Assembly (NCBI GenBank): GCA_023265595.1
Contig: JAHFSU010000003.1
Span: 6,178-70,177, forward strand
DNA length: 64,000 nt
Direction of reading: 5' to 3'
Source of the DNA: Deltaproteobacteria bacterium
Lineage (GTDB): Bacteria > UBA10199 > SPLOWO2-01-44-7
Under the pieces are notes generated by a model, which searched no databases, was not told the DNA's origin, and saw nothing but the letters and a program-made list of their open reading frames with translations. This document shows, one piece after another, positions 3,922 through 42,105 of this stretch. Both the position numbers and the translations under genes were made by a program. The number at the start of each line of letters is the position of its first letter. Positions within the stretch are counted from its first letter, which is position 1.

Positions 3922-3963
3922 TTGTCATTTCGAAAACCATCTGATAGCCAAACGCATCAAAAT

Positions 3964-5811
3964 ATGGCCCAATCTGATTCCCAAACCGTTGCAACGCTGG
4001 AAGCCATTGCCAAACAGTTGCGCATCGATAGTTTGAGGGCAACGACGGCCGCCGGTTCCGGTCATCCGACTACTTGTCTTTCCGCCGCCGATCTTGTCGC
4101 GGCAATTTTTTTCCATACGATGCGTTTTGATCCGAAAAATCCCTCCGATCCCAACGCAGATCGTTTTGTTTTATCCAAGGGGCATGCGGCCCCGATCCTT
4201 TGGGCCGCTTGGGCAGCCGCCGGTTTTATCTCCCGCGATGATCTTTTGAATTTGCGTAAAATCGATTCCTTTTTGGAAGGCCATCCAACCCCTCGCATGC
4301 CGTGGGTCGATGTGGCGACCGGATCCTTGGGACAAGGGCTCTCTTGCGGTTTGGGGATGGCATTCAGTTTTAAAAAAATTGATAAGAATGATGCAAAGGT
4401 CTTTGTTTTAATTGGAGACGGAGAATGTGCGGAAGGAGCGGTTTGGGAAGCGGCTTCGTTGGCCGGTTATTATAAAATGAATAATCTGATTGCCGTTGTC
4501 GATGTGAACGCGTTGGGACAGAGTCAGGCGACTATGTATCACCACAATTTGGAACCGTACACGAAAAAATTTGAAGCTTGCGGATGGCGGACGATTGAAA
4601 TCGATGGGCACAATATGCAAGCCATTCTCGGTGCATTAGATCAAGCCGCCGCAGAAAAAGAGAGACCGATTGCCGTCATTGCAAAAACGATCAAGGGAAA
4701 AGGGGTCGCCTCTTGCGAAGGGAAAGAAGGATGGCACGGGAAGGCTCTGTCTCCGGCCGATTTGGAAAAGGCGATTCAGGAAATCGGGAAAGTCCCCGAT
4801 TTTGGCAAGATGGCCGTCCGAAAACCGGCCGGATCCATGACGCCGGTGGCTTCTATTCAAGAGGCATTACCTCCTCATTACAAATTGGGTGATGGGGTGG
4901 CAACCCGTGCGGCTTATGGCGAAGCGCTTGTAAAGTTGGGGGCCGCCAATCCGAACGTTGTGGCGCTCGACGGCGACACCAAAAATTCGACCTATTCCGA
5001 AAAATTCATGAAGGCGTATCCCGAAAGATTTTTTGAATGTTTCATTGCTGAGCAAAATATGGTCGGTGTGGCGTTGGGACTGGCCGCGCGCGGTAAAATC
5101 CCTTTTGTCTCGACCTTCGGCGCTTTTTTTGCGCGGGCCTATGATCAAATTCGTATGGCCGGCATTTCGCAAAAACCGTTCAAACTCTGCGGCTCTCATG
5201 CCGGCGTCTCGATCGGTGAAGATGGGCCATCGCAGATGGCGCTGGAAGATCTGTCAATGATGCGGGCGATTCCGAATATGGCGGTTTTGTATCCTTCCGA
5301 TGCGGTCTCTTGCGAACGTCTCGTTTTTGCAGCGGCACAATATCCGGGGATGGTTTTTATTCGCACCGCCCGTCCTGCAACGCCGGTGATTTATCCCAAC
5401 GAGACCTCTTTCCGCATTGGGGGCTGTAAGGTTCTCAAGAGTTCTGAGAAAGATCAGGCGACGATTATTGGCGCCGGTATTACGCTGTTTGAAGCGCTGA
5501 AGGCTTATGATATTCTCAAAAAAGAAGGGATTGCCGTCCGCGTGATCGATCTCTATTCGCTCAAGCCGGTCGACCAGGAGACATTACTCAAAGCCGGAAA
5601 AGAGACGGGCCATTTGATCACCGTTGAAGATCATTACCCGGAAGGAGGCTTGGGCGACGCGGTTTTGGGGGCGGTCTCGGAATTTGGAATGAAGGTTACG
5701 AAGCTGGCTGTCAACCAGATTCCTCGATCGGGCAAACCGCAGGAGTTGATTCAACTTTGTGGCATCAGTGCAGAAAAAATTGTGGAGACCGTTCACGCCA
5801 TTTGCCGCTGA
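3964..5811 (+). CDS. tkt: Transketolase, with N- and C-terminal halves fused (about 615 aa).
   Basis: Thiamine-diphosphate motif GDGECAEG and a transketolase pyrimidine-binding / C-terminal domain. The ORF-track start at 3922 is a TTG immediately after the murI stop; the ATG at 3964 is more likely. Confidence 0.8.
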   Translation: MAQSDSQTVATLEAIAKQLRIDSLRATTAAGSGHPTTCLSAADLVAAIFFHTMRFDPKNPSDPNADRFVLSKGHAAPILWAAWAAAGFISRDDLLNLRKIDSFLEGHPTPRMPWVDVATGSLGQGLSCGLGMAFSFKKIDKNDAKVFVLIGDGECAEGAVWEAASLAGYYKMNNLIAVVDVNALGQSQATMYHHNLEPYTKKFEACGWRTIEIDGHNMQAILGALDQAAAEKERPIAVIAKTIKGKGVASCEGKEGWHGKALSPADLEKAIQEIGKVPDFGKMAVRKPAGSMTPVASIQEALPPHYKLGDGVATRAAYGEALVKLGAANPNVVALDGDTKNSTYSEKFMKAYPERFFECFIAEQNMVGVALGLAARGKIPFVSTFGAFFARAYDQIRMAGISQKPFKLCGSHAGVSIGEDGPSQMALEDLSMMRAIPNMAVLYPSDAVSCERLVFAAAQYPGMVFIRTARPATPVIYPNETSFRIGGCKVLKSSEKDQATIIGAGITLFEALKAYDILKKEGIAVRVIDLYSLKPVDQETLLKAGKETGHLITVEDHYPEGGLGDAVLGAVSEFGMKVTKLAVNQIPRSGKPQELIQLCGISAEKIVETVHAICR

Positions 5812-5838
5812 TTTTGAATCGAAAGGTAAAAGGGGATT

Positions 5839-7110
5839 ATGAAAAAGGTTTTGATTCTTTTTTTGCTGATGGTTTCTCCCGCTTTTGCGCTGGATCAAAA
5901 AGGCTTTGAAACACTCAATGTCTTCACCAAAATTTTAAATTATGTCGAAAACGATTACGTAGAAAAAGTCGACGATCAAAGACTGCTTCGCGGGGCCATC
6001 CGGGGAATGCTGTCCACGCTCGATCCACACACCGTTTATCTTTCGCCGGAGGTTTATAAGGAGTTAAAGGCCGATACTTCCGGTATTTTTGGCGGGGTTG
6101 GCCTCGAAATCACGATTCGCGGCGGTTGGGTGACCATTGTCTCTGCTGTGGAAGGGACACCCGCTTTTCGCGCCGGTGTCCAACCGGGGGACCGAATCCT
6201 AAAAATCGACGGACAATCCACCAAAGAGATGGATTTGTCGGATGCGGTCAAAGCGATGCGTGGTAAAAAAGGCTCCAAAGTGACCCTAACCATTTCAAGG
6301 CTGGGGCAAAAACAACTGTTTAATATCGTTGTTGTTCGTGAAGTGGTGAAAGTGCCAAGTGTCCATGCGGAGCTGTTGGAACATAAATACCCCTACATAA
6401 AAATCAGCAGTTTTCAGGAAAGAACCAATAGCGATCTGAAGAAGGCGCTCAAGAAATATGAAAATGAGGTCAAAACGAATGGTCTCATTCTCGATTTGCG
6501 CAATAATCCGGGCGGCCTTTTGGAACAGGCCGTGCAAGTTTGCTCTGAATTTTTGGATAGCGGAGTCGTAGTCATCACCGAAAGCAGGAAAAAAGAGGTG
6601 GAGAAGAGAGCTATTATGCCGGAGCCCGATAGAATTCCGGTCGATTTTCCGCTAATTATTTTAGTCAACGGCGGTTCTGCTTCCGCTTCGGAAATTGTGG
6701 CAGGGGCGCTGCAAGATCACAAGCGGGCGGTCATTATGGGGACGCAGACTTTCGGCAAAGGTTCGGTGCAGTCGGTTGTCGAACTGGATGACGGTTCGGC
6801 TTTAAAAATTACAATCGCCCGCTATTACACGCCCGACAGGCACTCCATTCAGTCCGAGGGGGTGAAACCCGATGTCGTGGTGGCGCCGAGTCCTGAGGTG
6901 AAAACGGAAGGGACACTGATTCGGCTTCGTGAAGAACATCTCAAGGGACATTTAAAGGGGGCTTTTGAAGAAGAGAAGGAGAAAGAGCATGAAAAGGTGG
7001 TGGAATATGTTGCCCCACCGCCTATCGGCGCTTTTGATTATCAGCGAAAAGCTGCCCTCGATTATTTGAAAGACAAATCTCTTTTTGAAAAGGCAAAAAA
7101 GAAAAAATGA
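5839..7110 (+). CDS. ctpA: Carboxyl-terminal processing protease, peptidase family S41, with a PDZ domain.
   Basis: Signal peptide, PDZ domain, and S41 catalytic motifs (NPGG, GSASASEI). Confidence 0.85.
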   Translation: MKKVLILFLLMVSPAFALDQKGFETLNVFTKILNYVENDYVEKVDDQRLLRGAIRGMLSTLDPHTVYLSPEVYKELKADTSGIFGGVGLEITIRGGWVTIVSAVEGTPAFRAGVQPGDRILKIDGQSTKEMDLSDAVKAMRGKKGSKVTLTISRLGQKQLFNIVVVREVVKVPSVHAELLEHKYPYIKISSFQERTNSDLKKALKKYENEVKTNGLILDLRNNPGGLLEQAVQVCSEFLDSGVVVITESRKKEVEKRAIMPEPDRIPVDFPLIILVNGGSASASEIVAGALQDHKRAVIMGTQTFGKGSVQSVVELDDGSALKITIARYYTPDRHSIQSEGVKPDVVVAPSPEVKTEGTLIRLREEHLKGHLKGAFEEEKEKEHEKVVEYVAPPPIGAFDYQRKAALDYLKDKSLFEKAKKKK

Positions 7111-8150
7111 AAGCGGTTGCAAAGTTGAAAGCCCAGCCGGGGTTCGAGTTGATTGATGCGCCCGTTCCAAAACTGACCTCCCATCGTGTTTTGGTGAAGG
7201 TCAAAGCCGCATCCATTTGCGGTTCGGATGTTCATCTTTTCAAATGGGACGATTGGGCCAGCCATAACCTGACACCACCCAGAATCATCGGCCATGAAGG
7301 GGCGGGAGAAGTGATTGAAGTGGGCGAACAGGTGGAAGGAATCCAAATCGGGGATCGGGTCTCCTTTGAAAGTCATATCCCTTGTCTCCATTGCGCCCGT
7401 TGTCGCACCGGCGAAATGCATTTGTGTCGCGATTTAAAAACGATCGGTTTCGGAGCCGATGGTTGCTTTGCTGAATATATTGCTATGCCTGAAATCTGTT
7501 GCGTCAGAAATGACCGGTCGATGCCGTGGGAGATTGCCTCCATTCAAGAACCCCTTGGAAATTCGGTTTATGCCGTTTCCGAAAGTGATGTCGCCGGAAA
7601 AACCGTTGCCGTTTTTGGTGATGGGCCGACCGGATTATTTGCAGTGGCTGTGGCCCGTTCACTCGGCGCCACCACGATTTATGCGGTGGGGGCAAGTCCT
7701 TTTCGTCTAGGACTCATGAAAAAAATGAAACCGGATATTTTGATCGATGTTACAAAGGAAGAGGCGGCCGAAATCATTTTAGAAAAAACGCATGGCAATG
7801 GAGTGGATGTTGTTTTGGAGATGAGCGGCGCCGAAAAGGCCATTCATGACGGTTTCAAATCGATTCGAAATGGGGGGACATTCACCGCATTTGGAATTCC
7901 TAGCAAGCCGCTTCAAATAGATTTTGCAAAAGAGGTGATTTTAAAAGGGATCAAGTTGATCGCGATTCATGGCCGAAAAATGTTCGATACATGGAAGCAG
8001 ATGGGAGATCTCTTAAACAGCGGGCGTCTCGATGTGACGCCGGTTATTACCCACAAAATGCCGATGGCCAAAATTTCAGAGGCCTTTGCCCTGCTCACCA
8101 AAGATCCGATCGAAGCCGGTAAAATCGTCCTCTATCCTCCTACCTGGTAA
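7107..8150 (+). CDS. tdh: L-threonine 3-dehydrogenase (zinc-dependent medium-chain dehydrogenase).
   Basis: N-terminus MKAVAKLKAQPG...ICGSDVH closely resembles E. coli Tdh. GHEGAGEV zinc site and a Rossmann GDGPTG motif. Confidence 0.85.
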   Translation: MKAVAKLKAQPGFELIDAPVPKLTSHRVLVKVKAASICGSDVHLFKWDDWASHNLTPPRIIGHEGAGEVIEVGEQVEGIQIGDRVSFESHIPCLHCARCRTGEMHLCRDLKTIGFGADGCFAEYIAMPEICCVRNDRSMPWEIASIQEPLGNSVYAVSESDVAGKTVAVFGDGPTGLFAVAVARSLGATTIYAVGASPFRLGLMKKMKPDILIDVTKEEAAEIILEKTHGNGVDVVLEMSGAEKAIHDGFKSIRNGGTFTAFGIPSKPLQIDFAKEVILKGIKLIAIHGRKMFDTWKQMGDLLNSGRLDVTPVITHKMPMAKISEAFALLTKDPIEAGKIVLYPPTW

Positions 8151-8200
8151 GGGAAGGCTCCTCCCTACCTGGTAAGGAAACGTTAATTTCTACCAGGTAG
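8142..8200. promoter_or_regulatory. Three copies of the 9-bp palindrome TACCWGGTA with exact 25-bp centre-to-centre spacing (8142-8150, 8167-8175, 8192-8200). Candidate regulator/enhancer binding array.
   Basis: Read directly: cTACCTGGTAagg...ccTACCTGGTAagg...tcTACCAGGTAggg. The first copy overlaps the tdh stop codon. The same motif with the same 25-bp spacing recurs at 34177-34210. Confidence 0.5.
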
Positions 8201-8231
8201 GGGAATTGTCAAAATGATAACAAAAAGGGTG

Positions 8232-8255
8232 AAAATTGACACCTGCGTCAATTTT
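8232..8255. promoter_or_regulatory. Perfect palindrome AAAATTGAC-acctgc-GTCAATTTT, a candidate operator or activator site about 90-115 bp upstream of the sigma-54 promoter.
   Basis: 9-bp perfect arms. The TTGAC/GTCAA half-site resembles the palindromes at 41961-42070. Confidence 0.4.
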
Positions 8256-8323
8256 TTGACGTCCGTCTGATTTCTATCTAATTGAAATAACTAATTAAAA
8301 TATACGGGCGGATAATTTCTGAT

Positions 8324-8339
8324 TGGCACGGCACTTGCT
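8324..8339 (+). promoter_or_regulatory. Sigma-54 (RpoN) promoter TGGCACG-gcac-TTGCT.
   Basis: Exact match to the -24/-12 consensus TGGCACG-N4-TTGCW, located 27 bp upstream of the ATG at 8366. An AT-rich possible IHF region (8290-8312) and palindromes lie upstream. Confidence 0.65.
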
Positions 8340-8365
8340 CTCTAAACGCTGTCGTTGGAGGGCCT

Positions 8366-10036
8366 TTGCCAAATCGTATTAAAATAACGATCGGATTTTT
8401 TAGTCTTTTGATTTTTTCTCTTCAATGGGGTTGTGGCTCCAGCACCGGTAGTGGTGGCGCCTCTGCGCAGACGGTCAGCGGGACGGGAGGCAATGAAGCA
8501 AGCTCTCCGTCCGCCATGGCGGCAGGCGATGTGATGTATGTCGGTTTTAGTGGAATTTCCGCGAGTGTCAGTTTTAGTGGTGCGAGCGGCACCTATCAAT
8601 TGTTGCTTCAGTCGCAGGCAACCGATGCCGCCTCTAAATCAGTGACCGCTTCAGATACCAATGTTTCCAAATCGATTGGCCTTGGCGATCCCTTGGTTGA
8701 TGATGTCATGAAATCAGAGTCGGAATCGGTTCAGAATCAATTGGAGGCGATATTAAGAAATGAAGAACGGTTTTTATTGAATGTCCCTTGGAATGGAAGT
8801 GTTTCACAACCGGTCTCAACAAATGGAACTGTTTCCGCCGGCAAATCGGTTGGCGGCGGTTCGGGTGTTTCTCCCTCTTTGTCGGTCAATGACAGCGATA
8901 CATTTCGTGTCTTGAAATCTCTGAGTGATGTGACCCAATATCGTACCGTTACGGCAACGGTCAAGTGTGTCAACGATACGGTGGCGATTTATGTTGATGA
9001 TGAAATTTCCAGCACCAATCCTTCTGATTTGTCGCAGGCCAATATCAATACCTTGTGTTCCGAATTTAAAGACTCGCTCGCAACGACGTCCAGCGTTTTT
9101 GGATCGTATCCGGATATCAATAATGATGGTGTAGCTGTTGCGCTGATTACGCCGGCTGTCAATCGATTAGGGGCTTCGAGCGGTGGTATCGTGACCGGTT
9201 TTTTCTATTCGGGCGATCTTTTTGCAAGAAGCAGTTCGATTCCGGCTAGTAATTATCGCGAGATTGTCTATCTTGTCTCTCCCGATTCGGGCGGTGTTTA
9301 TGGCACCAAAATTACCAATGCCTTTGCGATGTCCAACTTTTTGCCTGCTGTTTTTCCGCACGAGATGCAGCATCTGATCAATTATTACCAGCATACTATT
9401 GTCCTTAGCGGCGATGCAGAAGAGGACTGGCTCAATGAGGCCTTGTCCCATTTCACGGAAGATTTGGTTGGCTATGGTCGCGAAAATTATTCGCGCTACG
9501 ATCTCTTTTTGGATTCTCCGCAAAGTTATGCCGTCGTGACCTCTGCAAGTCCCAGTTTGGCGCAAAGGGGAGGAGGGTATCTGTTTTTGAGATATCTTTA
9601 TGAACAGAGTGGGTCGAGTTCGACATTTTTGAAAAATCTGGTGCAGACGACCAATACCGGTATCAACAACTTGGTGGCTGCTTATCCTTCGAAACCGTCC
9701 GATTTTGATTCGTTCGGTGAATTTTTAAGACGCTGGGCGGTGGCCCTTGCCTATACCAATGCAGGATTAACTACTAATTCCAAGCTCACTTACAATGCCC
9801 GAACCTATAATAACAGTACAGGCAACTGGCAGGGAGTTTGTATGATCTGTTCGGCAGAAGATGGTCGTTCGACAGTGTTGAGCGGCCCTTCTTTCGGCAC
9901 TTACAGCGCCGGAACCAGCTACACCATCAAGGCTTCTGCAACGCGGTTTTTGAATCTTTCTTCGACCCCATCTTCCTTGAGTTTGACCGGCGCCAGTGGC
10001 AGTTCCCCCGCCGCCATCATTTTGAAAACGAAGTAA
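8366..10036 (+). CDS. Secreted putative lipoprotein, Ser/Gly/Thr-rich, with an HExxH zinc-metallopeptidase motif (HEMQH).
   Basis: Signal peptide with Cys (LQWGC). FPHEMQHLINYY contains HExxH. No closer family recognised. Confidence 0.5.
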   Translation: MPNRIKITIGFFSLLIFSLQWGCGSSTGSGGASAQTVSGTGGNEASSPSAMAAGDVMYVGFSGISASVSFSGASGTYQLLLQSQATDAASKSVTASDTNVSKSIGLGDPLVDDVMKSESESVQNQLEAILRNEERFLLNVPWNGSVSQPVSTNGTVSAGKSVGGGSGVSPSLSVNDSDTFRVLKSLSDVTQYRTVTATVKCVNDTVAIYVDDEISSTNPSDLSQANINTLCSEFKDSLATTSSVFGSYPDINNDGVAVALITPAVNRLGASSGGIVTGFFYSGDLFARSSSIPASNYREIVYLVSPDSGGVYGTKITNAFAMSNFLPAVFPHEMQHLINYYQHTIVLSGDAEEDWLNEALSHFTEDLVGYGRENYSRYDLFLDSPQSYAVVTSASPSLAQRGGGYLFLRYLYEQSGSSSTFLKNLVQTTNTGINNLVAAYPSKPSDFDSFGEFLRRWAVALAYTNAGLTTNSKLTYNARTYNNSTGNWQGVCMICSAEDGRSTVLSGPSFGTYSAGTSYTIKASATRFLNLSSTPSSLSLTGASGSSPAAIILKTK

Positions 10037-10091
10037 TGCTCGCAGTCCCATCGTTGACTTTCCACCCCTTCAACGTTAAAAATCAATACCG

Positions 10092-10895
10092 ATGTATCCC
10101 ATCTTATTTAAAATTCCGTTGTTTGGTCTTTTTGGTCGTGAGTTCATTCCGGTTCATGGCTACGGCGTTTTGGTGGCTTTAGGGTTTCTGGTCGGGAGCT
10201 GGTATGTTCAACGCGAGGCAAAAAGGGAAAGAGAGGACCCGGCCAAGGCTTTGGATCTTGTCTTCTACATTATCATTGCGGCCATTTTCGGATCCCGAAT
10301 TCTTTTTGTATTGGTGGCGGAACGGGATCTATTTTTTCAGAATCCGTTGCATCTTTTCAAAATTTGGCAGGGGGGGCTTGTTTTTTATGGAGGACTCGTT
10401 GCGAGTCTATTCGTTAGTTGGTGGTATCTGAAACGTCATCATCTGCCTCTTCTCAAATTTTGCGATTTTTTCGTACCGGCAGTGGCTTTAGGGCACGCGA
10501 TCGGCCGCTTGGGCTGTTTTTTTTCAGGATGTTGTTATGGGAGATCGCTGTTGCACGATGCATGGTATGCCCTCATTTTTCCGTCAGACATCAATTCTTT
10601 GGCGCCGCCGGGGATCCCCCTCTATCCGACGCAGTTAATGGAATCGGCCGCTGAGTTTCTGGTTTTTTTAGGGCTCAACTGGAAGTTGCACCGGAAGTCG
10701 TTTGATGGTCAAATTTTATCTCTCTATTTGATGAGCTATGCCGTTGTCCGTTTTGCGCTCGAATTTTTAAGAGGAGATCCGGAAAGAGGCTTCGTATTTG
10801 GCACCGATTTTTCGACATCGCAGTTGATCGCTTTTATTCTATTTGCAATCGGATTGGGATTGTATTTAAATAAGAAAAAATGCGAAAAACTATAA
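10092..10895 (+). CDS. lgt: Prolipoprotein diacylglyceryl transferase.
   Basis: Lgt N-terminus (IPLFGxFxxHxYGVLVALGF) and the GRLGCFFxGCCYG signature. Confidence 0.85.
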   Translation: MYPILFKIPLFGLFGREFIPVHGYGVLVALGFLVGSWYVQREAKREREDPAKALDLVFYIIIAAIFGSRILFVLVAERDLFFQNPLHLFKIWQGGLVFYGGLVASLFVSWWYLKRHHLPLLKFCDFFVPAVALGHAIGRLGCFFSGCCYGRSLLHDAWYALIFPSDINSLAPPGIPLYPTQLMESAAEFLVFLGLNWKLHRKSFDGQILSLYLMSYAVVRFALEFLRGDPERGFVFGTDFSTSQLIAFILFAIGLGLYLNKKKCEKL

Positions 10896-11353
10896 TACTC
10901 TTATTTTTCCTTCTCTTGTCCGTTGGCTGTAATAAAGTCTATCGGACAGCGAAACCGAGCCAGCCTCATCTATATAAACAGACTTTTTCCGCGACGCCGA
11001 ACGACATCTATTATGCGCTGCGATGGGCTTTGCGCGCCAATGGTTATCCGATTGCCGAAGAGGACCTTCAAAACGGGGTCATCAAAAGCCGCTTTGTGCC
11101 GGTCAAGGCGACCTCTCATTATTTAAATATTTTTGATCGTCAAGATTACGGGATCAACGGCGGTTATCATCAGTTGGAGGCAAAACTGATCCCTCAAAAT
11201 GGAAAAACAGAGGTGCAAATCGGTTCTCGCATTCAGAGCATTGTCAGCCGCCTCCGTTCCAACGGGAGTGAAGAGGAGTTGATTTTAGGCAAAATTGGTG
11301 ATTATTTAAGAAACCCAAATGTACAGTTGACCAACCTAGGTATTCAGGAATAA
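10880..11353 (+). CDS. Small hypothetical lipoprotein.
   Basis: Signal peptide with LSVGC lipobox-like cysteine. 157 aa with no recognised domain. Confidence 0.45.
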   Translation: MRKTIILLFFLLLSVGCNKVYRTAKPSQPHLYKQTFSATPNDIYYALRWALRANGYPIAEEDLQNGVIKSRFVPVKATSHYLNIFDRQDYGINGGYHQLEAKLIPQNGKTEVQIGSRIQSIVSRLRSNGSEEELILGKIGDYLRNPNVQLTNLGIQE

Positions 11354-11365
11354 AGCAGTTTTCCC

Positions 11366-14173
11366 ATGGCCATCGATTACAAAGCGACACTCAATTTGCC
11401 GCAAACCGAATTTCCGATGAAAGCCAATTTAGGGCAACGGGAACCTCAGTTTTTGAAAAATTGGGAGCATCAAAAAATCTACCAACAAATCATCAAGAAA
11501 AACGCAAAAAATGCGAAATATATTTTTCACGACGGACCCCCTTACGCCAACGGACATATTCATTATGGAACCATTCTCAACAAGACACTGAAAGATATTG
11601 TAGTGAAGTACAAAAATATGTCGGGCTTTTTGTGCGAATTTGTTCCCGGTTGGGATTGTCACGGATTGCCGATTGAGCTTCAGGTCGACAAGGATTTGGG
11701 GCCAAAAAAAACGTCGATGTCGTCGCTGCAAATCCGGAAACTCTGCAGAGAGCATGCGTCAAAATATATCGACATTCAAAGAGAGGAATTCAAACGATTG
11801 GGCGGGTTTGCCGATTGGGATCACCCCTATCTCACGATGTCGCCGCAATATGAAGCCACCATCGCAAGGGAATTCGGAAAGTTCGTGGCAAAAGATTTGG
11901 TTTACCGCGGAAAGAAACCGGTTTTTTGGTGTCCCTCCTGTCAAACCGCTTTAGCCGAGGCAGAGGTGGAATACAAAGACCATCATTCACCCTCCATTTA
12001 TGTCAAATTTAGACTCAAAGAGGAAAAGGAATTGCAGAAAAGATGGCGTCTGACCGAGGAACCGATCCATCTTGTCATCTGGACAACGACCCCATGGACG
12101 CTTCCCGCTAATTTGGCAGTGGCACTGCATCCCCAGTTTACCTATGTCGCCGCCCGCATCAATAAGGAAATATGGATTGTGGCCGATGGTTTGTTGCATT
12201 CTATTCTGGAAAAATTTGGCTCTCCCGAATGCGAAGTCTTGACCAAATTTTCCGGAAAAGAATTGGAAAATTTTCATTGTCAGCATCCCTTTTTGCCGCG
12301 TGAATCGCTCATTATTTTGGCTCCACACGTAACACTGGAGGCCGGAACCGGCTGTGTCCACACAGCGCCCGGCCACGGTTATGAAGATTATGAAATCGGG
12401 AAAAAATATGGTCTCGATTGTTTGGCCCCGATCGATGCTGCGGGAAAATTTACAAAAGAGGCCGGCGCAGATTGGCTGATCGGTCTTTATGTCGAAAAGG
12501 CAAACCGGCCGATTGTCGAACATTTGCAGAAGACAGGGGCTTTGGCCAAAGAAGAAACCCTTTCCCATTCGTACCCGCATTGCTGGCGTTGCCAGAACCC
12601 GATCGTTTTTCGCGCGACCGAACAGTGGTTTATTTCGATGGAAAAAGAGGATTTGCGCAAGAAGGCCCTGCTCGCAATCGACCATGTCGCGTGGATTCCG
12701 CCGTGGGGAAGAAACCGCATTTACGGAATGGTTCAAAATCGGCCGGACTGGTGTGTTTCAAGACAGCGGAGATGGGGAGTGCCGATCATTGCGGTGATCT
12801 GCACGGCTTGTAACAAGGCCATCACCACAAAAGAGATGGTCGATAAAGTGGCGGATATTTTTGAAAAGAAAGAAGGGGCGGATGCTTGGTTTGAATTGGA
12901 ACTCAAAGAGATTTTGCCGAAAAGTTTTGTCTGTCCCTCCTGCAAAAAAGCAAATTCTTTTTCAAAAGAGATGGACATTTTGGATGTCTGGTTCGACTCC
13001 GGAGCCTCTTATGCCGCGGTTTTGGAAGGGATGTTGAAAATCAAGGAGCCGGCCGATTTGTATCTGGAAGGGAGCGATCAACATCGGGGATGGTTTCATA
13101 CCTCCCTTTTGGAATCGATCGCAACGCGGGGGCGGGCCCCATTCAAGCGGGTGCTGACCCATGGCTTTGTCGTCGATGCCGATGGGAAAAAACTTTCCAA
13201 GTCAGCTAAAAATTTCATCCCTCCCGAAAATGTTTTAAAAAATCACGGCGCCGAAATGCTTCGCCTTTGGGTGGCGAACGAAGATTATCGGAACGACATC
13301 CGTTTTTCAGAGGAAATTCTGACACGACTCGTCGATTCCTACCGTAAAATCAGAAATACTTGTCGCTATCTTTTGGGAAACCTCTACGATTTCACCCCCG
13401 GCAAAGATGATGTGCCGTATGACAAACTGGCCCCTCTTGATCGTTGGGGTCTTCATATTTTGCAAAGAACGGTCACCGATGTTTTGAAGGGCTATGACGC
13501 CTTTGAATTTCACACGATCTCACACATTTTGAACAAGGTTTGTGCGGTTGAGTTTTCGTCGCTCTATTTCGATATTTTGAAAGACCGTCTCTACACCGAG
13601 GCCAAAAACGGTCTGAAAAGGCGCTCGGCCCAGACAGTTTTATTTGATATTCTCGACACTTTGGTTCGTCTGATGGCACCCATTTTTTCATTCACGGCCG
13701 AAGAGGTTTGGGCTTCTATGGCCCGGCGCAAAGGAGAACCCGATTCCGTTTTTTTGGCCTCCATGCCGAAAACAATTTCCCAATGGGACAATGGAGAGTT
13801 GGCCTCCCGATGGGAGCGGTTTTTTACGATGCGTTCTGTTGTAACCAAGGCGCTTGAGACGGCGCGCGCGGCAAAATTCATCGGTAATTCCTTGGAGGCC
13901 AAGGTTGTGATTGAAGCCAGTCACGATCAGGAAGAATTTTTGAAAACATTCCATCCCGACCTGCCGGATTTATTCATTGTTTCTGAAGTGGAATTTGGCA
14001 AGACCAAGGGGGAGTGGGTGCATGCTTCGGAAACCATTTTAGGATTCAAAGTCGGCATTGAAAAATCGGCCGGCAGCAAGTGCGGCCGTTGCTGGAAATT
14101 TCTTTCCTCAGTCGGCAAAAATCCGCAACATCCTGAAATTTGCGAACGGTGTGCAACCATTGTGGAAGGGTGA
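11366..14173 (+). CDS. ileS: Isoleucyl-tRNA synthetase.
   Basis: HIGH motif (PYANGHIHYGT), KMSKS motif (KLSKSAKN), C-terminal zinc-finger cysteines. 935 aa. Confidence 0.95.
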   Translation: MAIDYKATLNLPQTEFPMKANLGQREPQFLKNWEHQKIYQQIIKKNAKNAKYIFHDGPPYANGHIHYGTILNKTLKDIVVKYKNMSGFLCEFVPGWDCHGLPIELQVDKDLGPKKTSMSSLQIRKLCREHASKYIDIQREEFKRLGGFADWDHPYLTMSPQYEATIAREFGKFVAKDLVYRGKKPVFWCPSCQTALAEAEVEYKDHHSPSIYVKFRLKEEKELQKRWRLTEEPIHLVIWTTTPWTLPANLAVALHPQFTYVAARINKEIWIVADGLLHSILEKFGSPECEVLTKFSGKELENFHCQHPFLPRESLIILAPHVTLEAGTGCVHTAPGHGYEDYEIGKKYGLDCLAPIDAAGKFTKEAGADWLIGLYVEKANRPIVEHLQKTGALAKEETLSHSYPHCWRCQNPIVFRATEQWFISMEKEDLRKKALLAIDHVAWIPPWGRNRIYGMVQNRPDWCVSRQRRWGVPIIAVICTACNKAITTKEMVDKVADIFEKKEGADAWFELELKEILPKSFVCPSCKKANSFSKEMDILDVWFDSGASYAAVLEGMLKIKEPADLYLEGSDQHRGWFHTSLLESIATRGRAPFKRVLTHGFVVDADGKKLSKSAKNFIPPENVLKNHGAEMLRLWVANEDYRNDIRFSEEILTRLVDSYRKIRNTCRYLLGNLYDFTPGKDDVPYDKLAPLDRWGLHILQRTVTDVLKGYDAFEFHTISHILNKVCAVEFSSLYFDILKDRLYTEAKNGLKRRSAQTVLFDILDTLVRLMAPIFSFTAEEVWASMARRKGEPDSVFLASMPKTISQWDNGELASRWERFFTMRSVVTKALETARAAKFIGNSLEAKVVIEASHDQEEFLKTFHPDLPDLFIVSEVEFGKTKGEWVHASETILGFKVGIEKSAGSKCGRCWKFLSSVGKNPQHPEICERCATIVEG

Positions 14174-14667
14174 TGGCCTACAAATACAAAATATTACTAA
14201 CCCTTGCCCCTCTGATTCTTTTTCTGGACCAACTCACCAAATTTTTTATTCTCCAAACGGTGCCGATCGGAGATGTGATTTCCGTTCTCCCCGGTTATTT
14301 TGATATCGTTCATATCCGCAATACCGGCGCCGCTTTTGGCATGTTGGCTAATCTTGATGAGGTGGCACGGGTCCCTTTTTTTTACGGGGTTTCCGGCATC
14401 GCGATTTGCATTTTGATTTATGCCTTTTTACATCTGGATCCGAAAGATCATTATTATCCATGGCCGTTGAGCCTTATCGCGAGCGGCATTCTTGGAAATT
14501 TGATCGATCGTTTTCGTTTTGGCAATGTCGTCGATTTCATCTCTTTGCATATTCAGGAAAGCACTTTGGGTTCGATCAAGCTCGAGTGGCCGGCGTTTAA
14601 CGTGGCCGATTCCGCCATCACCGTTTCCATGATTTTACTTTTTGCGCATATTTTGCAAAAAAAGTAG
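14173..14667 (+). CDS. lspA: Lipoprotein signal peptidase II.
   Basis: About 165 aa with four transmembrane helices and conserved LspA motifs (NxGAAFG, FNVAD). The ATG overlaps the ileS stop (TGATG). Confidence 0.85.
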   Translation: MAYKYKILLTLAPLILFLDQLTKFFILQTVPIGDVISVLPGYFDIVHIRNTGAAFGMLANLDEVARVPFFYGVSGIAICILIYAFLHLDPKDHYYPWPLSLIASGILGNLIDRFRFGNVVDFISLHIQESTLGSIKLEWPAFNVADSAITVSMILLFAHILQKK

Positions 14668-21723: not shown

Positions 21724-21836
21724 GGGGGAGCGGCATTTGATAATTATATAGTAATTTCAATTACTTATAATTTATCCTGAGCGATTCAGTTTTGGCAACG
21801 GTTTTGCAAAGTTAAAGGGGAGCAAAAGGGGTATAT

Positions 21837-32263: not shown

Positions 32264-33031
32264 ATGCTTCTAGCGATGGATGTCGGAAATACAAATGTAA
32301 CACTCGGTTTTTTTGCAGAGGGGAAGCTGCAGCACGATTGGCGTGTGGATACCGCACACGTTCGTACTGCCGATGAGATGGGGATCATGTTCAAAGCCCT
32401 TTTCAGTCTGGCGGGGATGGATTTTGAATCGATTAAGGCGATTGCCGTCTCCAATGTTGTTCCGCCCCTTCAGCATATTTTATTGACGACCTGCCAGCGC
32501 TATTTTGAAAAAGAACCTCTCTGGGTGACTCATGAAACGGCCAAAATAAAATATCGTGTCGATCGGCCTGAAGAAGTCGGCGCCGATCGTTTGTGCAATG
32601 CCATTGCGGCTTGGGAAAAATTCAAAACCGCAACAATCGTTGTCGATTTCGGGACGGCCACCACTTTTGATATTGTGACAGCCAAAGGAGAATATGGAGG
32701 TGGGGCTATTGCGCCGGGGATAGGCATTGCGAATCGAGCCTTAGCCGAAGCTGCCGCCAAACTGCCGCGCGTGGAAATTGCCAAACCGAAACATGTTGTG
32801 GGGCGTAACACCGTGGAATGTATTCAAGGAGGGATCTATTACGGCTACGTCGGTCTCGTCGATCATCTGGTGAGTTTGAGTATTCGGGAAGAGGGGGTAC
32901 CGATGAGAGTTGTAGCCACCGGCGGTTTGGCTTCTTTGATTGCACAAGAATCAAGGACGATTGAAAGTGTCGAACGGTTTTTAACGCTTGAGGGGATTCA
33001 TCATATCTGGAAACGGTGTCATGCCCACTAA
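32264..33031 (+). CDS. coaX: Type III pantothenate kinase.
   Basis: MLLAMDVGNTN N-terminus and conserved CoaX/Bvg-accessory-factor motifs (GTATTFD, GGxA). Confidence 0.85.
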   Translation: MLLAMDVGNTNVTLGFFAEGKLQHDWRVDTAHVRTADEMGIMFKALFSLAGMDFESIKAIAVSNVVPPLQHILLTTCQRYFEKEPLWVTHETAKIKYRVDRPEEVGADRLCNAIAAWEKFKTATIVVDFGTATTFDIVTAKGEYGGGAIAPGIGIANRALAEAAAKLPRVEIAKPKHVVGRNTVECIQGGIYYGYVGLVDHLVSLSIREEGVPMRVVATGGLASLIAQESRTIESVERFLTLEGIHHIWKRCHAH

Positions 33032-34119
33032 ATCCACTGTGGAAATAATTTTTGAATAATCGGGTGAACGGCTTTTCCATTTTGTGTCTGTAAACCCAAT
33101 CGGAGTGTGGCATCGGACTCCAATGCCTTGTGTATACCTAAATTGGCGAGATTCAAGACATAGGGAAATGTTGCTGTGGTGAGAGCTTCGGTCGATGTGC
33201 GCGGTGTGAGCGCCGGCATGTTGGTGACGCAGTAATGGATGACGCCGCGCTCTTTGTAAGTCGGTTCCGCGTGGGTGGTGGGGTGGGAGGTTTCAATGCA
33301 TCCCCCCTGATCGATGGCCACATCGACAATCACCGAGCCCTCTTCCATGCTCCCCACGGTCTCTTTTTTGACAACGGTCGGGGCCTTGTCTCCCGACACC
33401 AGAACAGCACCGACAAGCAGATCGGCTTTGACAACCCATTCGAGAATGGATTGTGGGGTGGAGCGAATCGCTTTGACGCGGCCATGAAATTTTTCTTCGA
33501 TCCGTTTGAGTTTGTGATCTTTTACATCGAGCATCACCACTTCGGCGCCGAGACCGGCCGCTACTTCCGCGGCATTCATGCCGACATGCCCTGCACCGAT
33601 CACAACCACGAGTCCCTTATCGGTGCCGGTCACGCCACCGAGCAGGACCCCTTTTCCACCGTGATTGGTATGTAACAGATAAGTGCCAATTTGTGTGGCG
33701 ATTCGGCCGGCCACTTCGCTCATCGGAGTCAATAGCGGCAATTCGCCGCTCGATAATGCGACCGTTTCATATCCTATTCCGGTCACTCTGTTTTGGCAGA
33801 GGGCATCCATTAATGGAAGCATGCTTGCCAAATGGAGATAGGTGAATAGTGTAAGGTTCGGCCGCAAATAACGATATTCACTTTCGACAGGCTCTTTCAC
33901 TTTCACAATCAATTCCGATTTGGCCCAAACCTCATCGGCATTAGGGCAAAGAGTAGCGCCGGCTTTTGCATATTCTTCATCGGTAAAACCGCTTGCAAAG
34001 CCGGCCTTTTGCTGGACCAAAACAGAATGACCTCCCTGAAGCAGTCTTTGAACCCCTTTGGGAGTCACCGAAACGCGGGTCTCTTTGGTTTTAATCTCTT
34101 TTGGAATGCCGATTTGCAT
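33028..34119 (-). CDS. ald: L-alanine dehydrogenase.
   Basis: MxIGIPKExKxxExRV N-terminus and Rossmann GAGxVG motif. 363 aa. Confidence 0.85.
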   Translation of the reverse strand: MQIGIPKEIKTKETRVSVTPKGVQRLLQGGHSVLVQQKAGFASGFTDEEYAKAGATLCPNADEVWAKSELIVKVKEPVESEYRYLRPNLTLFTYLHLASMLPLMDALCQNRVTGIGYETVALSSGELPLLTPMSEVAGRIATQIGTYLLHTNHGGKGVLLGGVTGTDKGLVVVIGAGHVGMNAAEVAAGLGAEVVMLDVKDHKLKRIEEKFHGRVKAIRSTPQSILEWVVKADLLVGAVLVSGDKAPTVVKKETVGSMEEGSVIVDVAIDQGGCIETSHPTTHAEPTYKERGVIHYCVTNMPALTPRTSTEALTTATFPYVLNLANLGIHKALESDATLRLGLQTQNGKAVHPIIQKLFPQWI

Positions 34120-34176
34120 GATCGCCGAACTGCCTATCCGATATCCTGATTGAAGTCAAATCTCCGCAATCTCCGC

Positions 34177-34210
34177 TACCTGGTAGAAAAGAGGCTTTCC
34201 CTACCAGGTA
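34177..34210. promoter_or_regulatory. Two TACCWGGTA palindromes (34177-34185, 34202-34210) spaced 25 bp, the same motif and phasing as at 8142-8200.
   Basis: Read directly: cgcTACCTGGTAgaa ... cccTACCAGGTAgaa. They lie about 30-80 bp upstream of motif copy f. Confidence 0.5.
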
Positions 34211-34238
34211 GAAATGACGCTTTGTGTCATTCGGCAGG

Positions 34239-34272: not shown

Positions 34273-37200
34273 ATGCGCAACTGTTTTCTTACATTGGCTT
34301 TGGCCCTTGCCTCGATTTGTTTTTTCTCCTGTTCCGACGGCAAACTCGGTGTCAGCGGCGGTATTACGCCCGATCTGGTCGGTACGCCGGATACTTCGCT
34401 TAGCGTTCATGAGGCTTCGCAGTTGATTGGTGGGCCGGCCGCGCAAGGACGTTTAGGCGATATTCTTCTTTCCAATTCCAAAATCCGCGTCCTTTTTCAG
34501 AAGGCCTCCAAAGATGCCGGCATCGGATCTTTCGGCGGTAATATTTTGGATGCCGATCGTGTGCGGCCCTCCGGCTCGCTCGGTCAGGATCGTTGGCGCG
34601 AACTTTTTCCGCTCGTCAATGTGGAATGGACGGTCAACACCGTCGATTTTATCGTCTTGTCCGATGGAAAAGAGGGCGGCCCTCAAGTTTTAAGAACCGT
34701 CGGCATGCTCGATGTCTACGATTATCTCGATCTCGACTGGATTGCCGACGCCGCCTCTGCGGTATTGGGGCAGCAGATCAATTTCGCCGATCGTTTTGAT
34801 GATCGCCGCGATCCGTTCAATGTCGATCCCTCGCTCAAAAATTTGTACCCGCAAGTGATTACCGACTACACGCTCGAACCGAATACCAACTATGTCAAGA
34901 TGGTAACCACCTTCACGAACCCCTCCAAAAATCCGATTGCGATGCCGGTCGGCGATTTTCTAGTCGGCGGCGGCGAGTTGCAAGTACTGGTGCCGGGCCA
35001 AGGTTTTGCACCGCCCGTCATGACACAGGTGGCACAAACAACTCCCGCCGTGATTTTTGCCGGTTTTCCGGGCGTCGATGTTTCATACGGTTATTTTTAT
35101 GAGTTAGCCGATTTCAAAAAACCGAAAATCAAGGAAGAGGATCCCGATGAGCTCTACACGACCACGGCTCTTAGCTATTCCGGCGTCACCGGCGTTTTGC
35201 TCGGAGAAGAATTTTTGAAAATCCTGCCGATCGGAATGCATGCAGCGCCTGAAATACATTTTGTGATTCCGCCGGAAAGTGAACGGAGCATCACCCGTTA
35301 TTTTGTCATTGGTGACGGATCGGCCGGTTCCGTGCTTGATACCGGACTCGTGATTTTGAAAGTCCCCACATCGACATTGTCAGGACAAGTGGTGGCCGGC
35401 AGCGGGGCCCCCGTTTCGGGAGCGACCGTTGCAGTGAAAAAATTGGGAGGTCCGACCGTGGTGACCTATACAACCGATGTGACAGGTCATTTTCACGGAA
35501 AGTTGCCGAAAGGTTCCGATCTGGTCGGAAAAACATTTGGTGATGGGCAATACGAAGTTTGGGTTAACAAAGAAGGGTATCATCAAAATACAACCGGCCG
35601 GGCGGGGACTTGTTCTCCCGCAAAAATTGATGTGACGCAAATGGCGGGTGTGCAGATTTCTTGTACATTAGGCGAAGTCGGATTTGTGCAATTAAGTGGT
35701 ATAACGGATGCCTCAACAGGGACGAATATTGCGTCACGATTGACCATTGTCGGCATTGACCCCTCGCCGGAAACGGAAGGCGCCGGCACTTTTTCAGACA
35801 CAAGCGTTTTTACGAGGCCCTTCGGTATTATTGATGCGAAAATTATCAATGTCAGAGGAGGGATCGGTTTGAGCGCCAAAAACATTTTTGAGCTGGAACC
35901 GGGAAACTACAAATTTGTTTTCTCACATGGGCCCGAATATTCCATTTTTGAAAAGGATGTTGTTGTGGGAGCCAGCGCCACAACGGTTATTCCCCCGGTT
36001 GTCCTCAAAAAAGTCATCTCTACACTCGGTTTTATCTCCGCCGATTTTCATGTCCATGCTCTGAACAGCCCCGACAGCGCTTTTAGCGTAGAGCGTCGGG
36101 CTTTAACGGCTGTTGCCGACGGTTTGGATGTGCTCCACAGCTCTGATCACGATTTTTTGACCGACTATGCCCCCGTGGTGGGCGAGTTGGTACAAGAGGG
36201 CTGGCTTACATCGGGGAGTGTGCAAACGATTGTCGGAGATGAAATTACACCGAATCAATATGGCCATCTGCATGCCTTTCCGTTAACGATCGATCCGGAA
36301 GATGTCGATCATGGTGCGCTCGACTGGTCGATGCATCCGTTGGATGAGGTCTCCACCGCTCCGGATTATGCACTTTCACCGCGTGAAATTGGGAACGAAG
36401 TCTTTCAAGATCCGGGTGAAGAGGTGTTTCAGGTCAACCATATTTCAGATAACCCAACCGGTTTGCCGGTGGCTACCGGTTGGCTGACAACCCCCATTTA
36501 CCGGAAAAAATTCGGCGTGCCGGCTTTCGTTTCTTACGCGGATCCGATTGAAAGGCGGCTCACCGCCCCAACCAACCGTCCGCCTGTCCCTCCTTATACG
36601 ATGTCGGAATCGGAGTTGATTTTTGACAATTTTACCGCAGTGGAATTGGTGATCGGCGCCAATCTCAAAACGAATCAACTTTGGGAATCGGCGCTTCCCA
36701 CATGGTTTAATCTTCTAAATTTGGGGCTCATGCCGACCGCGACCGGCGACTCCGACAGCCATCATGAAATTTCGGTGCCGCTGGGACTCCCGAGAAATTA
36801 TATTGCGATGCCTGTCGATCCGAGGGACGGGCTCGGAGAGAGTTTTGATGACATCAACGAAGAGGTTTATGCCCACAGCATTAATGAGCATCATGTCGTG
36901 GTTTCTGCGGGGCCGTTTATTACCGTCACGGCAAAAAATGAAAAAGGGAAATCGGCGGGTGTGGGTGATGTGATCCGCGGCCATTCGATAAAATTTGATA
37001 TTAAAGCGGAGGCCCCCGATTGGGCATGGTTTGATACGATCGAAATTTACGCCAATACCGAACCGTTGCCGGCGGAAGACAGCGGGCGTTTTGCCATGCG
37101 TGGCGAGGCCGAAACGCCATCCGGTTTTGCGGCGCCTTACCATATTCCTCGTTATACTTATGATGCGATTCAAAAATACAAATTGTCTGACGGGTCGCTG

Positions 37201-40703: not shown

Positions 40704-41984
40704 ATGCTCGGAGTCCTCGCAATGACAACCCTTCCGGCTTTTGCCAACACGCTTCCCCCCAATCTTGCGATTTTGGAAAAAGAGCCGGCCGATTTAAAAA
40801 TAATCGAAAAATTGGTTGACTATCGGTGGTTTGATCAAGCGTTAAAGGCTTTAATAAATTATCCGGATACGGATGAAAAGGCCCTCTTTTTAAAAGCCCG
40901 ATGTTGGATGGGGCTTAAAAGTTACAAAGAGGCCCTCGAATTATTTCACCAACTTGCAGAATCGTCTTCCTCTTTTGAAATGCGTCGCGAGGCCCTTTTG
41001 AAAGAGGCGATGATTTTTGTTCGACTCAAAAAATACGAGGCCGCGTTGGATATCTACAATCGTCTGCTTGAAGAAAATCGCGGGAAAAAAAGAGGGATCA
41101 GAGAAATTGCGAAGCGGGCTTTTAAAACGGCGTTGGAAGCGAAAAAATATGATGAAGGCCTGCTGTTTTTGGGACACTTCAGCGGAGATGAAGCCCGTTG
41201 GTGGCGCGGTTGGTGCCATTTTCGAAAAGAGGAATATGATGCCGCATTAACCTATTGGGATAAAATTTCCAAACGGAGTGATTTTTACCCGCAGACCCTT
41301 TTTTGGAAATCCCAAATTTTCAAAAAAATCAAAAATCCGGAGAAGAGTGATTCTTGTTTTCAGACACTTCTTCAGGAATATCCCTTCCATTATTATAGTT
41401 TTTTGGCTCTTTTTGAAAAAATTCCAAGGAAAAAGGATCGACTCGATCTGATTTCTACCCATTGGTCTGGTGACAGGGATAAATCGAAATGGATGGAGCG
41501 CTATCCACGAACATTTGAAATCGAAGTCAAAAAAGCAGCAAAAAAAAGAGACCTCGATTCCTATTTTGTTTTTGCCGTGATTTGGCAGGAATCCCATTTT
41601 CGCGAATGGGTGGTTTCTCCAAGTGGCGCGATCGGTTTAATGCAGCTGATGCCGCAAACGGCTTTGACATTGGCCCATGCGATTCAATTAAGACATTTTG
41701 ATCTTGTCCAAATTTTGAAACCGGAAATGAACATCAAGCTCGGTTCCCTTTACCTCTCTTTTTTGAAAAAACTTTTTTCCGGCCATCTTCCGCTGGCCGT
41801 TGCCGCCTATAATGCCGGGGAAGAAGCGGTTAGCCGGTGGTTGAGCCTTCGCAAAAAGGATTCTCTCCCGCTGATTATCGAAGAAATCCCTTACGACGAA
41901 ACCCAAAAATATACTAAAAAGGTGCTTTTGGCCCATTGGATTTACCATTGGCTCTACAGAGGGGACGTTCCACCCGTTTTTTGA
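40704..41984 (+). CDS. Lytic murein transglycosylase (SLT domain) with N-terminal TPR-like repeats.
   Basis: SLT catalytic motif (ES...GLMQLMP, AYNAG). Signal peptide from the Met at 40704. The ORF-track start at 40590 was rejected. Confidence 0.75.
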   Translation: MLGVLAMTTLPAFANTLPPNLAILEKEPADLKIIEKLVDYRWFDQALKALINYPDTDEKALFLKARCWMGLKSYKEALELFHQLAESSSSFEMRREALLKEAMIFVRLKKYEAALDIYNRLLEENRGKKRGIREIAKRAFKTALEAKKYDEGLLFLGHFSGDEARWWRGWCHFRKEEYDAALTYWDKISKRSDFYPQTLFWKSQIFKKIKNPEKSDSCFQTLLQEYPFHYYSFLALFEKIPRKKDRLDLISTHWSGDRDKSKWMERYPRTFEIEVKKAAKKRDLDSYFVFAVIWQESHFREWVVSPSGAIGLMQLMPQTALTLAHAIQLRHFDLVQILKPEMNIKLGSLYLSFLKKLFSGHLPLAVAAYNAGEEAVSRWLSLRKKDSLPLIIEEIPYDETQKYTKKVLLAHWIYHWLYRGDVPPVF

Positions 41985-42070
41985 CGCTTTTTGGCACCAC
42001 CGTCAAAAAAATAGGGGGACGTTCCACCAATTTTTTGACGCTTTTTGATGCCACCGTCAAAAAAATGACG
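41961..42070. repeat. Two tandem 53-bp direct repeats, each containing the palindrome TTTTTTGACG-N14-CGTCAAAAAA. Candidate enhancer/activator binding sites upstream of a sigma-54 promoter.
   Basis: Read directly. Repeat 1 overlaps the last 8 codons of the slt gene. Confidence 0.5.
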
Positions 42071-42089: not shown

Positions 42090-42105
42090 TGGCATCGATA
42101 TTGCT
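42090..42105 (+). promoter_or_regulatory. Sigma-54 promoter TGGCATC-gata-TTGCT.
   Basis: Matches TGGCACG-N4-TTGCW at 15 of 16 positions, about 45 bp upstream of the ATG at 42149. Confidence 0.55.

Follow-up and report, generated by a model that had tools for sequence, protein, structure and literature searches.

We analyzed a 64-kb window of genomic DNA from a Deltaproteobacteria bacterium of the UBA10199 lineage (assembly GCA_023265595.1, contig JAHFSU010000003.1, positions 6,178 to 70,177; all coordinates below are those of the window). It very probably contains a genuine sigma-54 (RpoN)-dependent promoter, at 8324 to 8339, that controls the gene of a membrane-anchored, M30-like zinc-metallopeptidase lipoprotein. 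The arrangement is kept in dozens of related uncultured bacteria and therefore appears to be a real, though mechanistically ordinary, switch. An earlier note on this DNA had placed a sigma-54 promoter, together with an enhancer upstream of it and an AT-rich bend, in front of a metallopeptidase-like lipoprotein gene. That core reading is supported by the conservation of the promoter at a fixed distance from the gene, by activator genes that adjoin homologous genes, and by conserved upstream palindromes. Where transcription starts, which palindrome binds the activator, what part integration host factor (IHF) plays, and what signal induces the gene are points that we infer.

Promoter motif and its conservation in homologous genes

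The promoter lies in an intergenic region (8151 to 8365) between a gene for a zinc-dependent dehydrogenase (7107 to 8150; ADH_N/ADH_zinc_N domains) and an open reading frame (ORF) of 556 codons (8366 to 10036, + strand). On the + strand, TGGCACGGCACTTGCT (TGGCACG-GCAC-TTGCT, 8324 to 8339) has no mismatch to the consensus TGGCACGNNNNTTGCW, and its -24 GG (8325 to 8326) and -12 GC (8337 to 8338) are separated by exactly 10 nt inside a TGGCAC-N5-TTGCW context. The exactness of the match, which the earlier note had already claimed, is confirmed: it is the only one in the window, none occurred in 100 dinucleotide shuffles, and the motif is kept in homologous genes, as detailed below. Sites with up to two mismatches numbered 10 in the window versus 9.4 expected; the class is not enriched, and the weight therefore falls entirely on the exact site and its position. 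A weight matrix derived from 56 nonredundant promoters of homologous genes, the window left out, gave the site 28.1 bits, compared to a median of 24.7 for the training set and 11.1 for the runner-up in the window.

The motif had been placed 27 bp before an ATG at 8366. The position is right, but the codon there is TTG and the gap is 26 nt. A GGAGG sequence within this gap (8357 to 8361, + strand), 4 nt before the TTG, reads as a ribosome-binding site, and a GGAG-type site is found at an equal offset in close relatives. Transcription from sigma-54 promoters starts about 12 nt downstream of the GC, a geometry that predicts a start at 8349 to 8351 on the + strand and would leave a 5' untranslated region of roughly 16 nt. 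No sigma-70-like promoter was found on the + strand between 7900 and 8600, and no intrinsic terminator was found after either the upstream gene or the target gene. An Rfam scan of 7900 to 8600 returned nothing meaningful, so a known cis-regulatory RNA is unlikely there, and a megablast search of 7000 to 12000 against a plasmid collection gave no match.

We then looked at the region upstream of homologous genes, using 160 loci fetched from genome and metagenome collections and 9 more (7 distinct contigs) obtained by exact-protein look-up. The genomes of the relatives are deposited as "Deltaproteobacteria bacterium" metagenome-assembled genomes (RIFCSP, CG11, NC_groundwater). The first 22 homologous loci all carried a GG-N10-GC motif of the TGGCAY-N5-TTGCW type 29 to 159 nt before the lipoprotein start, with at most two mismatches in 20 cases and three in the other 2. 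For a systematic count, each gene was anchored on the codon of its lipobox Cys and TGGCAY-N5-TTGCW was taken as the consensus. Among genome loci from outside the Gemmatimonadota, the motif was present with up to two mismatches in 32/34 genes and with up to three in all 34. The distance from the start of the motif to the Cys codon was tightly distributed (median of 116 nt and interquartile range of 108 to 123 over 60 such genes; 108 nt in the window). The Gemmatimonadota homologs served as an internal control, and none of 37 had a site with up to two mismatches, their best sites having 3 to 7, mostly 4 to 6. The promoter motif persists in homologs with as little as about 28% protein identity. 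When the ten closest relatives are aligned (alignment A2; 50 to 72% protein identity), TGGCA and CTTGCT are invariant against a mean column identity of 50%.

Activators were found next to some of the homologous genes. In locus L020, a 523-aa GAF/AAA+/helix-turn-helix activator with a GAFTGA motif is encoded immediately upstream of the homologous gene, on the same strand; its best NCBIfam match is NifA-type, below the cutoff. In L021, an NtrC/AtoC-type response regulator and a histidine kinase are encoded divergently from the homologous gene, and in L017 an activator gene lies 4.5 kb from it. To our knowledge, enhancer-binding proteins of the GAFTGA type act only with sigma-54. Since such genes adjoin the homologs, the lineage uses sigma-54, at least sometimes with a dedicated neighboring activator.

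These data bear on the alternative that the consensus match is fortuitous or vestigial and that the gene is served by a sigma-70 promoter or by read-through from the dehydrogenase gene. Across the window, near matches indeed occur about as often as chance predicts, no rpoN was detected there, and the TTGAC-containing elements upstream of the promoter resemble -35 boxes. However, zero exact matches are expected by chance, and the motif stands at a fixed distance in 32/34 homologous genes. Moreover, no sigma-70 promoter is seen on the + strand of the region, the TTGAC boxes of the relatives are not followed by a consistent -10 element, and activator genes flank the homologous gene in two genomes (L020 and L021). 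We regard this alternative as extremely improbable.

The comparison also yielded several observations on individual loci. Two M30-like lipoprotein paralogs occur about 2 kb apart in L002, L003, L013, L016, and L085, each with its own sigma-54 motif at the usual distance. In a group of distant homologs (L124, L130, L141, L145, L154, and L158), a TGGCAC-N5-TTGCG sequence lies about 300 nt before the lipobox codon and may be the sigma-54 promoter of an upstream gene of the same operon. Some deposited proteins have misplaced N termini. The N terminus of P0002 (MARGLLY..., L161 4001 to 4020) is the translated sigma-54 promoter, A-TGGCACGCGGCTTGCTCTAC, and that of P0077 (MVRGLLY...) looks like the same artifact; the true start is a downstream Met ahead of the lipobox. 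P0001 (506 aa), which is 100% identical to the window protein, was called 50 codons too short. The comparison exposes a recurrent annotation error, in which ORFs are called with a start that lies within the promoter or 50 codons too late.

Palindromes and AT-rich stretch upstream of the promoter

Palindromes were enumerated over 57 nonredundant upstream regions, with block shuffles as the control and with positions given as those of motif centers relative to the T of TGGCAC. Three motifs stood far above the shuffles, the first being GGGT-N8-ACCC. Exact copies were present anywhere in the 250 nt upstream in 21/57 regions, compared to a shuffle mean of 0.13, and copies with up to one mismatch were present between -120 and -60 in 28/57 (0.4 in shuffles), with a mode at -90 to -93. 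A second copy was found between -215 and -170 in 10/57 regions versus 0.53 in shuffles. In 810 kb of related loci, 23 of the 27 exact copies with an AT-rich spacer sit 50 to 230 nt upstream of such a promoter, which makes GGGT-N8-ACCC nearly specific to this gene family. Two other palindromes were enriched when up to one mismatch was allowed: TATCA-N3-TGATA between -150 and -105 (13/57 versus 0.26 in shuffles) and GTCAA-N4-TTGAC between -125 and -65 (7/57 versus 0.09).

All three are present in the window. The GGGT-N8-ACCC-like copy, GGGTGAAAATTGACAC (8227 to 8242), has one mismatch and is centered at -89 from the T of TGGCAC, about -115 from the predicted transcription start; we consider it a candidate enhancer, that is, an activator-binding site. 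A second candidate enhancer site is the exact palindrome CGTCAA-TTTT-TTGACG (8246 to 8261), which contains GTCAATTTTTTGAC and is centered at -70 (about -96 if counted from the predicted start). Within the clade to which the window belongs, no upstream block is better conserved, and the TTTTG.C of this palindrome is invariant in the ten close relatives of alignment A2. The third element, TGTCAAAATGATA (TGTCA-N3-TGATA, 8207 to 8219), is a one-mismatch copy of TATCA-N3-TGATA centered at -111; TGTCAAAATGATAAC is identical in L001, L081, and L166. L020 has two perfect TATCA-N3-TGATA copies between the enhancer-binding-protein gene and the promoter.

The sequence that separates the palindromes from the promoter is AT-rich. 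The earlier note had described an IHF-like stretch here; the richness is real (86% A+T at 8270 to 8305, versus 52.5% for the window), and the assignment to IHF is tentative. Within this spacer, TATCTAATTGAAAT (8275 to 8288, at about -43) has one mismatch to the IHF-like pattern YAANNNNTTGAW, a relaxed reverse complement of the IHF consensus WATCAANNNNTTR. On the + strand, YAANNNNTTGAW was found centered between -60 and -28 in 19/57 promoters, compared to 0.45 in shuffles and to 1/57 on the opposite strand, and the strict IHF form was found in 6/57 (0.17 in shuffles). Alignment A2 shows a consensus block TATCTCnTTGAAAT. We tentatively propose 8270 to 8305 as a candidate bend or IHF site. The window thus holds all four elements in the order of the family (-111, -89, -70, and about -43), and the conserved blocks of alignment A2 are exactly these.

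The earlier note had also singled out a perfect palindrome, AAAATTGAC-N6-GTCAATTTT (8232 to 8255). Its arms (8232 to 8240 and 8247 to 8255) are indeed 100% complementary, but it does not hold up as a separate control element. It is composed of the TTGAC in the GGGT-N8 spacer and of GTCAA, the left arm of CGTCAA-N4-TTGACG, and is a by-product of two adjacent conserved elements; of the ten relatives, only the closest, L001, retains it.

The conserved palindromes might instead bind repressors or other regulators, for example ones that occlude the activator or the bend, with the true activator site elsewhere or absent. The presence of three palindrome types together is more than one activator needs, and in some loci TATCA-N3-TGATA lies near the promoter in an operator-like position (-11 in L004 and -43 to -67 elsewhere). 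On the other hand, GGGT-N8-ACCC keeps to a sharply defined position, about 90 nt ahead of the -24 element, and is often joined by another copy about 100 nt farther upstream; such a placement is typical of enhancers, and the motif is almost exclusive to these promoters. We judge this alternative unlikely and favor activator binding.

None of the three palindromes was found by name in any paper of the library that we searched. The palindrome at 8246 to 8261 does resemble one known motif, in that GTCAATTTTTTGAC matches the FleQ box consensus proposed for Pseudomonas aeruginosa (GTCaNTAAAtTGAC) in its GTCAA-N4-TTGAC half-sites and in their spacing. This consensus is quoted in PMC6120874 and is reported there to be poorly predictive. 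FleQ is also a sigma-54 activator, but its organism is unrelated to that of the window, no FleQ homolog was encountered, and the resemblance is one of DNA motif only. We also considered a NifA site (TGT-N10-ACA). TGTCAAAATGATAACA in the window conforms to it, but L001, L081, and L166 lack the ACA, and we deemed the match a coincidence.

Lipoprotein product, gene neighborhood, and proposed mechanism

The 556-aa product begins with MPNRIKITIGFFSLLIFSLQWGC, followed by a Gly/Ser-rich linker, as in a lipoprotein signal, with the lipobox Cys at residue 23. HEMQH occupies residues 332 to 336 and is followed by NE at 357 to 358. In an alignment of 30 homologs (alignment A1), Cys23, H332, E333, H336, N357, E358, S361, H362, and E365 are invariant. 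Scans with Pfam-A (E ≤ 0.01) and NCBIfam gave no family match. A profile of alignment A1 matched lugdulysin (7BB8; 7bb8_A) by hmmsearch with an E value of 1.5e-28 over about 310 residues, at an identity of only about 17%, and the zinc-ligand motifs align (HEMQH...WLNEALSH here and HEYQH...WLNEALS in lugdulysin). An AlphaFold2 model (predicted local distance difference test [pLDDT] score of 86.7) had 7bb8_A as its top Foldseek match (E = 6.6e-16; target TM-score of 0.68), and the next matches were M1 aminopeptidases, leukotriene A4 (LTA4) hydrolase, and thermolysin, all gluzincins. Given the lack of a curated family match, the protein is best termed M30-like, as a distant relative. The earlier view of a lipoprotein resembling HExxH metallopeptidases is upheld by the invariant Cys23 and HExxH...NE and by the profile match to 7BB8, which is also the top fold match. 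Sequence and model together support a membrane-anchored zinc-peptidase-like lipoprotein with a lugdulysin-like gluzincin domain.

Lugdulysin, a zinc metallopeptidase of Staphylococcus lugdunensis, and hyicolysin belong to MEROPS family M30 and share with the window protein HExxH followed by WLNEALS, in the gluzincin arrangement. The window protein differs from lugdulysin in being a lipoprotein of the Gram-negative type and in having an extra beta domain at the N terminus and a beta-sandwich at the C terminus. Tyr315 of lugdulysin, which is mutated along with the catalytic Glu in PDB entry 7BB9, is paired by the profile alignment with the invariant Arg401, and the active-site chemistry may differ from that of the characterized M30 enzymes.

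The lipoprotein gene is immediately followed by lgt. The homologous gene comes after the same dehydrogenase gene in 8 of the 10 close relatives, and five gene tables show a fuller order of transketolase, S41 peptidase, dehydrogenase, M30-like lipoprotein, and lgt, to which L165, L168, and L169 add a small lipoprotein gene and ileS after lgt. The gene order of window positions 3922 to 14667, from transketolase through lgt and the small lipoprotein gene to ileS, is kept across L161 and L165 to L169, the S41 member being a C-terminal processing peptidase. This order places the sigma-54-controlled gene in a neighborhood of lipoprotein maturation. L169 has lspA and a second lgt in the neighborhood, and in L161 a pair of genes for trehalose-phosphate synthase and phosphatase is inserted between the lipoprotein gene and lgt.

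We propose that sigma-54 RNA polymerase would bind the -24 GG and -12 GC of 8324 to 8339 and stay there as a closed complex. An AAA+ enhancer-binding protein, encoded outside the window, would bind the palindromes 65 to 115 nt upstream (8227 to 8242, 8246 to 8261, and possibly 8207 to 8219), and bending of the 86% A+T stretch with its IHF-like motif would allow it to contact sigma-54. ATP hydrolysis by the activator would then open the promoter, and transcription would begin near 8350, giving a short mRNA leader with GGAGG and the TTG start. The product would be exported, lipidated at Cys23 (presumably by the product of the adjacent lgt gene), and act as a surface or periplasmic zinc peptidase.

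Several points weigh against this proposal. Neither rpoN nor a gene for an enhancer-binding protein is present in the 64-kb window, as judged from six-frame searches for GAFTGA, the Walker A motif of bacterial enhancer-binding proteins (GE[ST]G[TVS]GK), and the RpoN box and from Pfam scans of 36 ORFs, the longest included; that the organism has sigma-54 is deduced from its relatives. The window copies of GGGT-N8-ACCC and TATCA-N3-TGATA each have one mismatch, and the ligand of one or more of the palindromes could be a repressor or some other factor. The IHF-like match of the window is imperfect, and the enrichment of this element was measured with a relaxed pattern. Finally, there is no terminator between the lipoprotein gene and lgt, and read-through into lgt is possible.

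The arrangement is much like that of classical sigma-54 promoters in which an upstream enhancer is combined with an IHF bend (such as glnAp2/NtrC, nifH/NifA, and Pu/XylR). It has the same -24 GG and -12 GC with exact spacing and full consensus, palindromic sites at a distance of about 100 nt and in some cases of about 200 nt, an AT-rich IHF-like stretch between these and the promoter, and, in two relatives, GAFTGA AAA+ activators encoded beside the homologous gene. It differs in that GGGT-N8-ACCC, TATCA-N3-TGATA, and CGTCAA-N4-TTGACG are not sites for NtrC, NifA, or XylR and in that the target is a protease-like lipoprotein without annotation rather than a nitrogen, flagellar, or catabolic gene. 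The Rrp2-RpoN control of lipoproteins in Borrelia likewise places surface and lipoprotein functions under sigma-54, but it runs through RpoS, whereas in the window the lipoprotein gene has a sigma-54 promoter of its own. Our finding fits published work in which sigma-54 is seen as controlling the cell exterior, lipoproteins included (Francke et al. 2011, PMC3162934).

Since the mechanism is a textbook one, the gain lies in annotation and regulon mapping and not in a new principle. What is new is the M30-like lipoprotein target family, which had no prior annotation, how widely it is conserved in uncultured lineages, and enhancer motifs that seem undescribed. A lineage known only from metagenomes receives a regulatory annotation of high confidence, and a protein family without a Pfam or NCBIfam model is assigned to the M30-like lipoprotein peptidases and recognized as a conserved sigma-54 target. 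The candidate enhancer motifs defined here can be used to find the activator and the rest of the regulon. We offer only as a tentative possibility, and not as the likelier case, that a dedicated sigma-54 activator circuit is kept for M30-like surface lipoprotein peptidases across uncultured lineages (Deltaproteobacteria/UBA10199-type, Nitrospirota-labeled, and Bdellovibrio-labeled), marked by GGGT-N8-ACCC about 90 nt upstream of the -24 element and often by TATCA-N3-TGATA as well. Such a circuit, if real, would point to an envelope, lipoprotein-homeostasis, or protein-scavenging response, and the motif would let regulon and activator be predicted in organisms that cannot be cultured.

TACCWGGTA repeats and other sigma-54-type sites in the window

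Three phased TACCWGGTA palindromes had been reported upstream of the promoter as part of its control region. They are real, one base off the earlier coordinates (8141 to 8199, with starts at 8141, 8166, and 8191 and a phase of 25 nt), but a role as enhancer is not borne out by their distribution: they are absent in relatives and recur without a sigma-54 motif. The window contains 5 copies of TACCWGGTA versus 0.05 expected. Copies 2 and 3 form a hairpin (8163 to 8202) with a 12-bp stem (-22 to -32 kcal/mol; z = -3.2), 13 nt past the stop codon of the dehydrogenase gene. The first TACCTGGTA copy overlaps the 3' end of that gene and provides its last three codons and its stop. The dehydrogenase ends in ...PPTW* (8139 to 8150), from the first TACCTGGTAA repeat copy, and its homologs in L081 and L083 end a few codons earlier. 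The comparison suggests that insertion or duplication brought the repeat into the 3' end of the gene. The 10 close relatives retain the promoter and the other palindromes, TACCWGGTA is absent from all of them, and 1.78 Mb of related loci contained only three isolated copies.

A second pair, TACCTGGTA-N16-TACCAGGTA (34177 to 34210), has identical spacing and likewise a 25-nt phase, but its loop is unrelated. The pair is flanked by a divergent alanine dehydrogenase gene (33028 to 34119, - strand) and a gene for a 1,096-aa lipoprotein (ATG at 34273), with no sigma-54 or sigma-70 consensus nearby, and it forms a hairpin with an 11-bp stem (34172 to 34212). In both pairs (copies 2 and 3, and the copies at 34177 and 34202), the units form exact inverted repeats that extend to the central base, and the loops, 16 nt long in each pair, are unrelated in sequence.

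If the triplet were an enhancer, its activator sites would lie at about -155, -180, and -205. The repeats are strongly nonrandom, short, palindromic, phased by 25 nt, and located upstream of the promoter, and both arrays of the window precede lipoprotein genes. Against this, they are missing from all 10 close relatives and nearly so from the 1.78 Mb of related loci, the second array is not followed by a sigma-54 motif, the first copy runs into the stop codon of the dehydrogenase gene, and exact inverted pairs with unrelated loops fit a hairpin-forming repeat. We give the enhancer role little credence. We lean, by a modest degree, to the view that the arrays are a lineage-specific, hairpin-forming intergenic repeat (a REP-like element, 3'-end stabilizer, or partial terminator) unrelated to sigma-54 control, which is compatible with the sigma-54 promoter at 8324. 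The stable stem-loop at 8163 to 8202, the recurrence of the same stem with an unrelated loop at 34172 to 34212, and the lack of conservation in relatives speak for such a repeat. The units end in GTAG/CTAC, which we take to be a feature of many REP elements. Less favorably, only two loci were seen in the 64 kb, no T-run follows the stem, and hence it is not a canonical intrinsic terminator, and the second locus lies between divergent gene starts, so that it cannot be a terminator there. The arrays are like REP/REPIN repeats in being short intergenic inverted repeats, multicopy, with conserved stems and variable loops, and absent from close relatives; they differ in that the units are only about 11 to 12 nt long and that just these two loci are known in the window. 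Probably separate from the promoter's control, they may be REP-like or may serve some unrelated dimeric factor as its operator.

A second sigma-54-type site, TGGCATCGATATTGCT (42090 to 42105), lies 43 nt before the ATG (42149) of a gene for a PKD-domain lipoprotein (42149 to 44719; 856 aa, MKKILFLLPIFIFFMAC). It is preceded by two 52-nt direct repeats (41961 to 42066), each with TTTTTTGACG-N14-CGTCAAAAAA. The 10-mer TTTTTTGACG occurs 6 times in the window versus 1.05 expected, and 5 of these copies are upstream of the two sigma-54-type sites; going by this shared sequence, the same activator may serve both promoters (8324 and 42090). The only homolog available for comparing the 42090 site is partial, on a contig without the upstream region. 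A weak sigma-54-like sequence, TGGCAACGGTTTTGCA (21793 to 21808), is located 28 nt before the ATG (21837) of a 119-aa ORF and belongs to the intergenic DNA that follows a divergent FtsJ-like methyltransferase gene.

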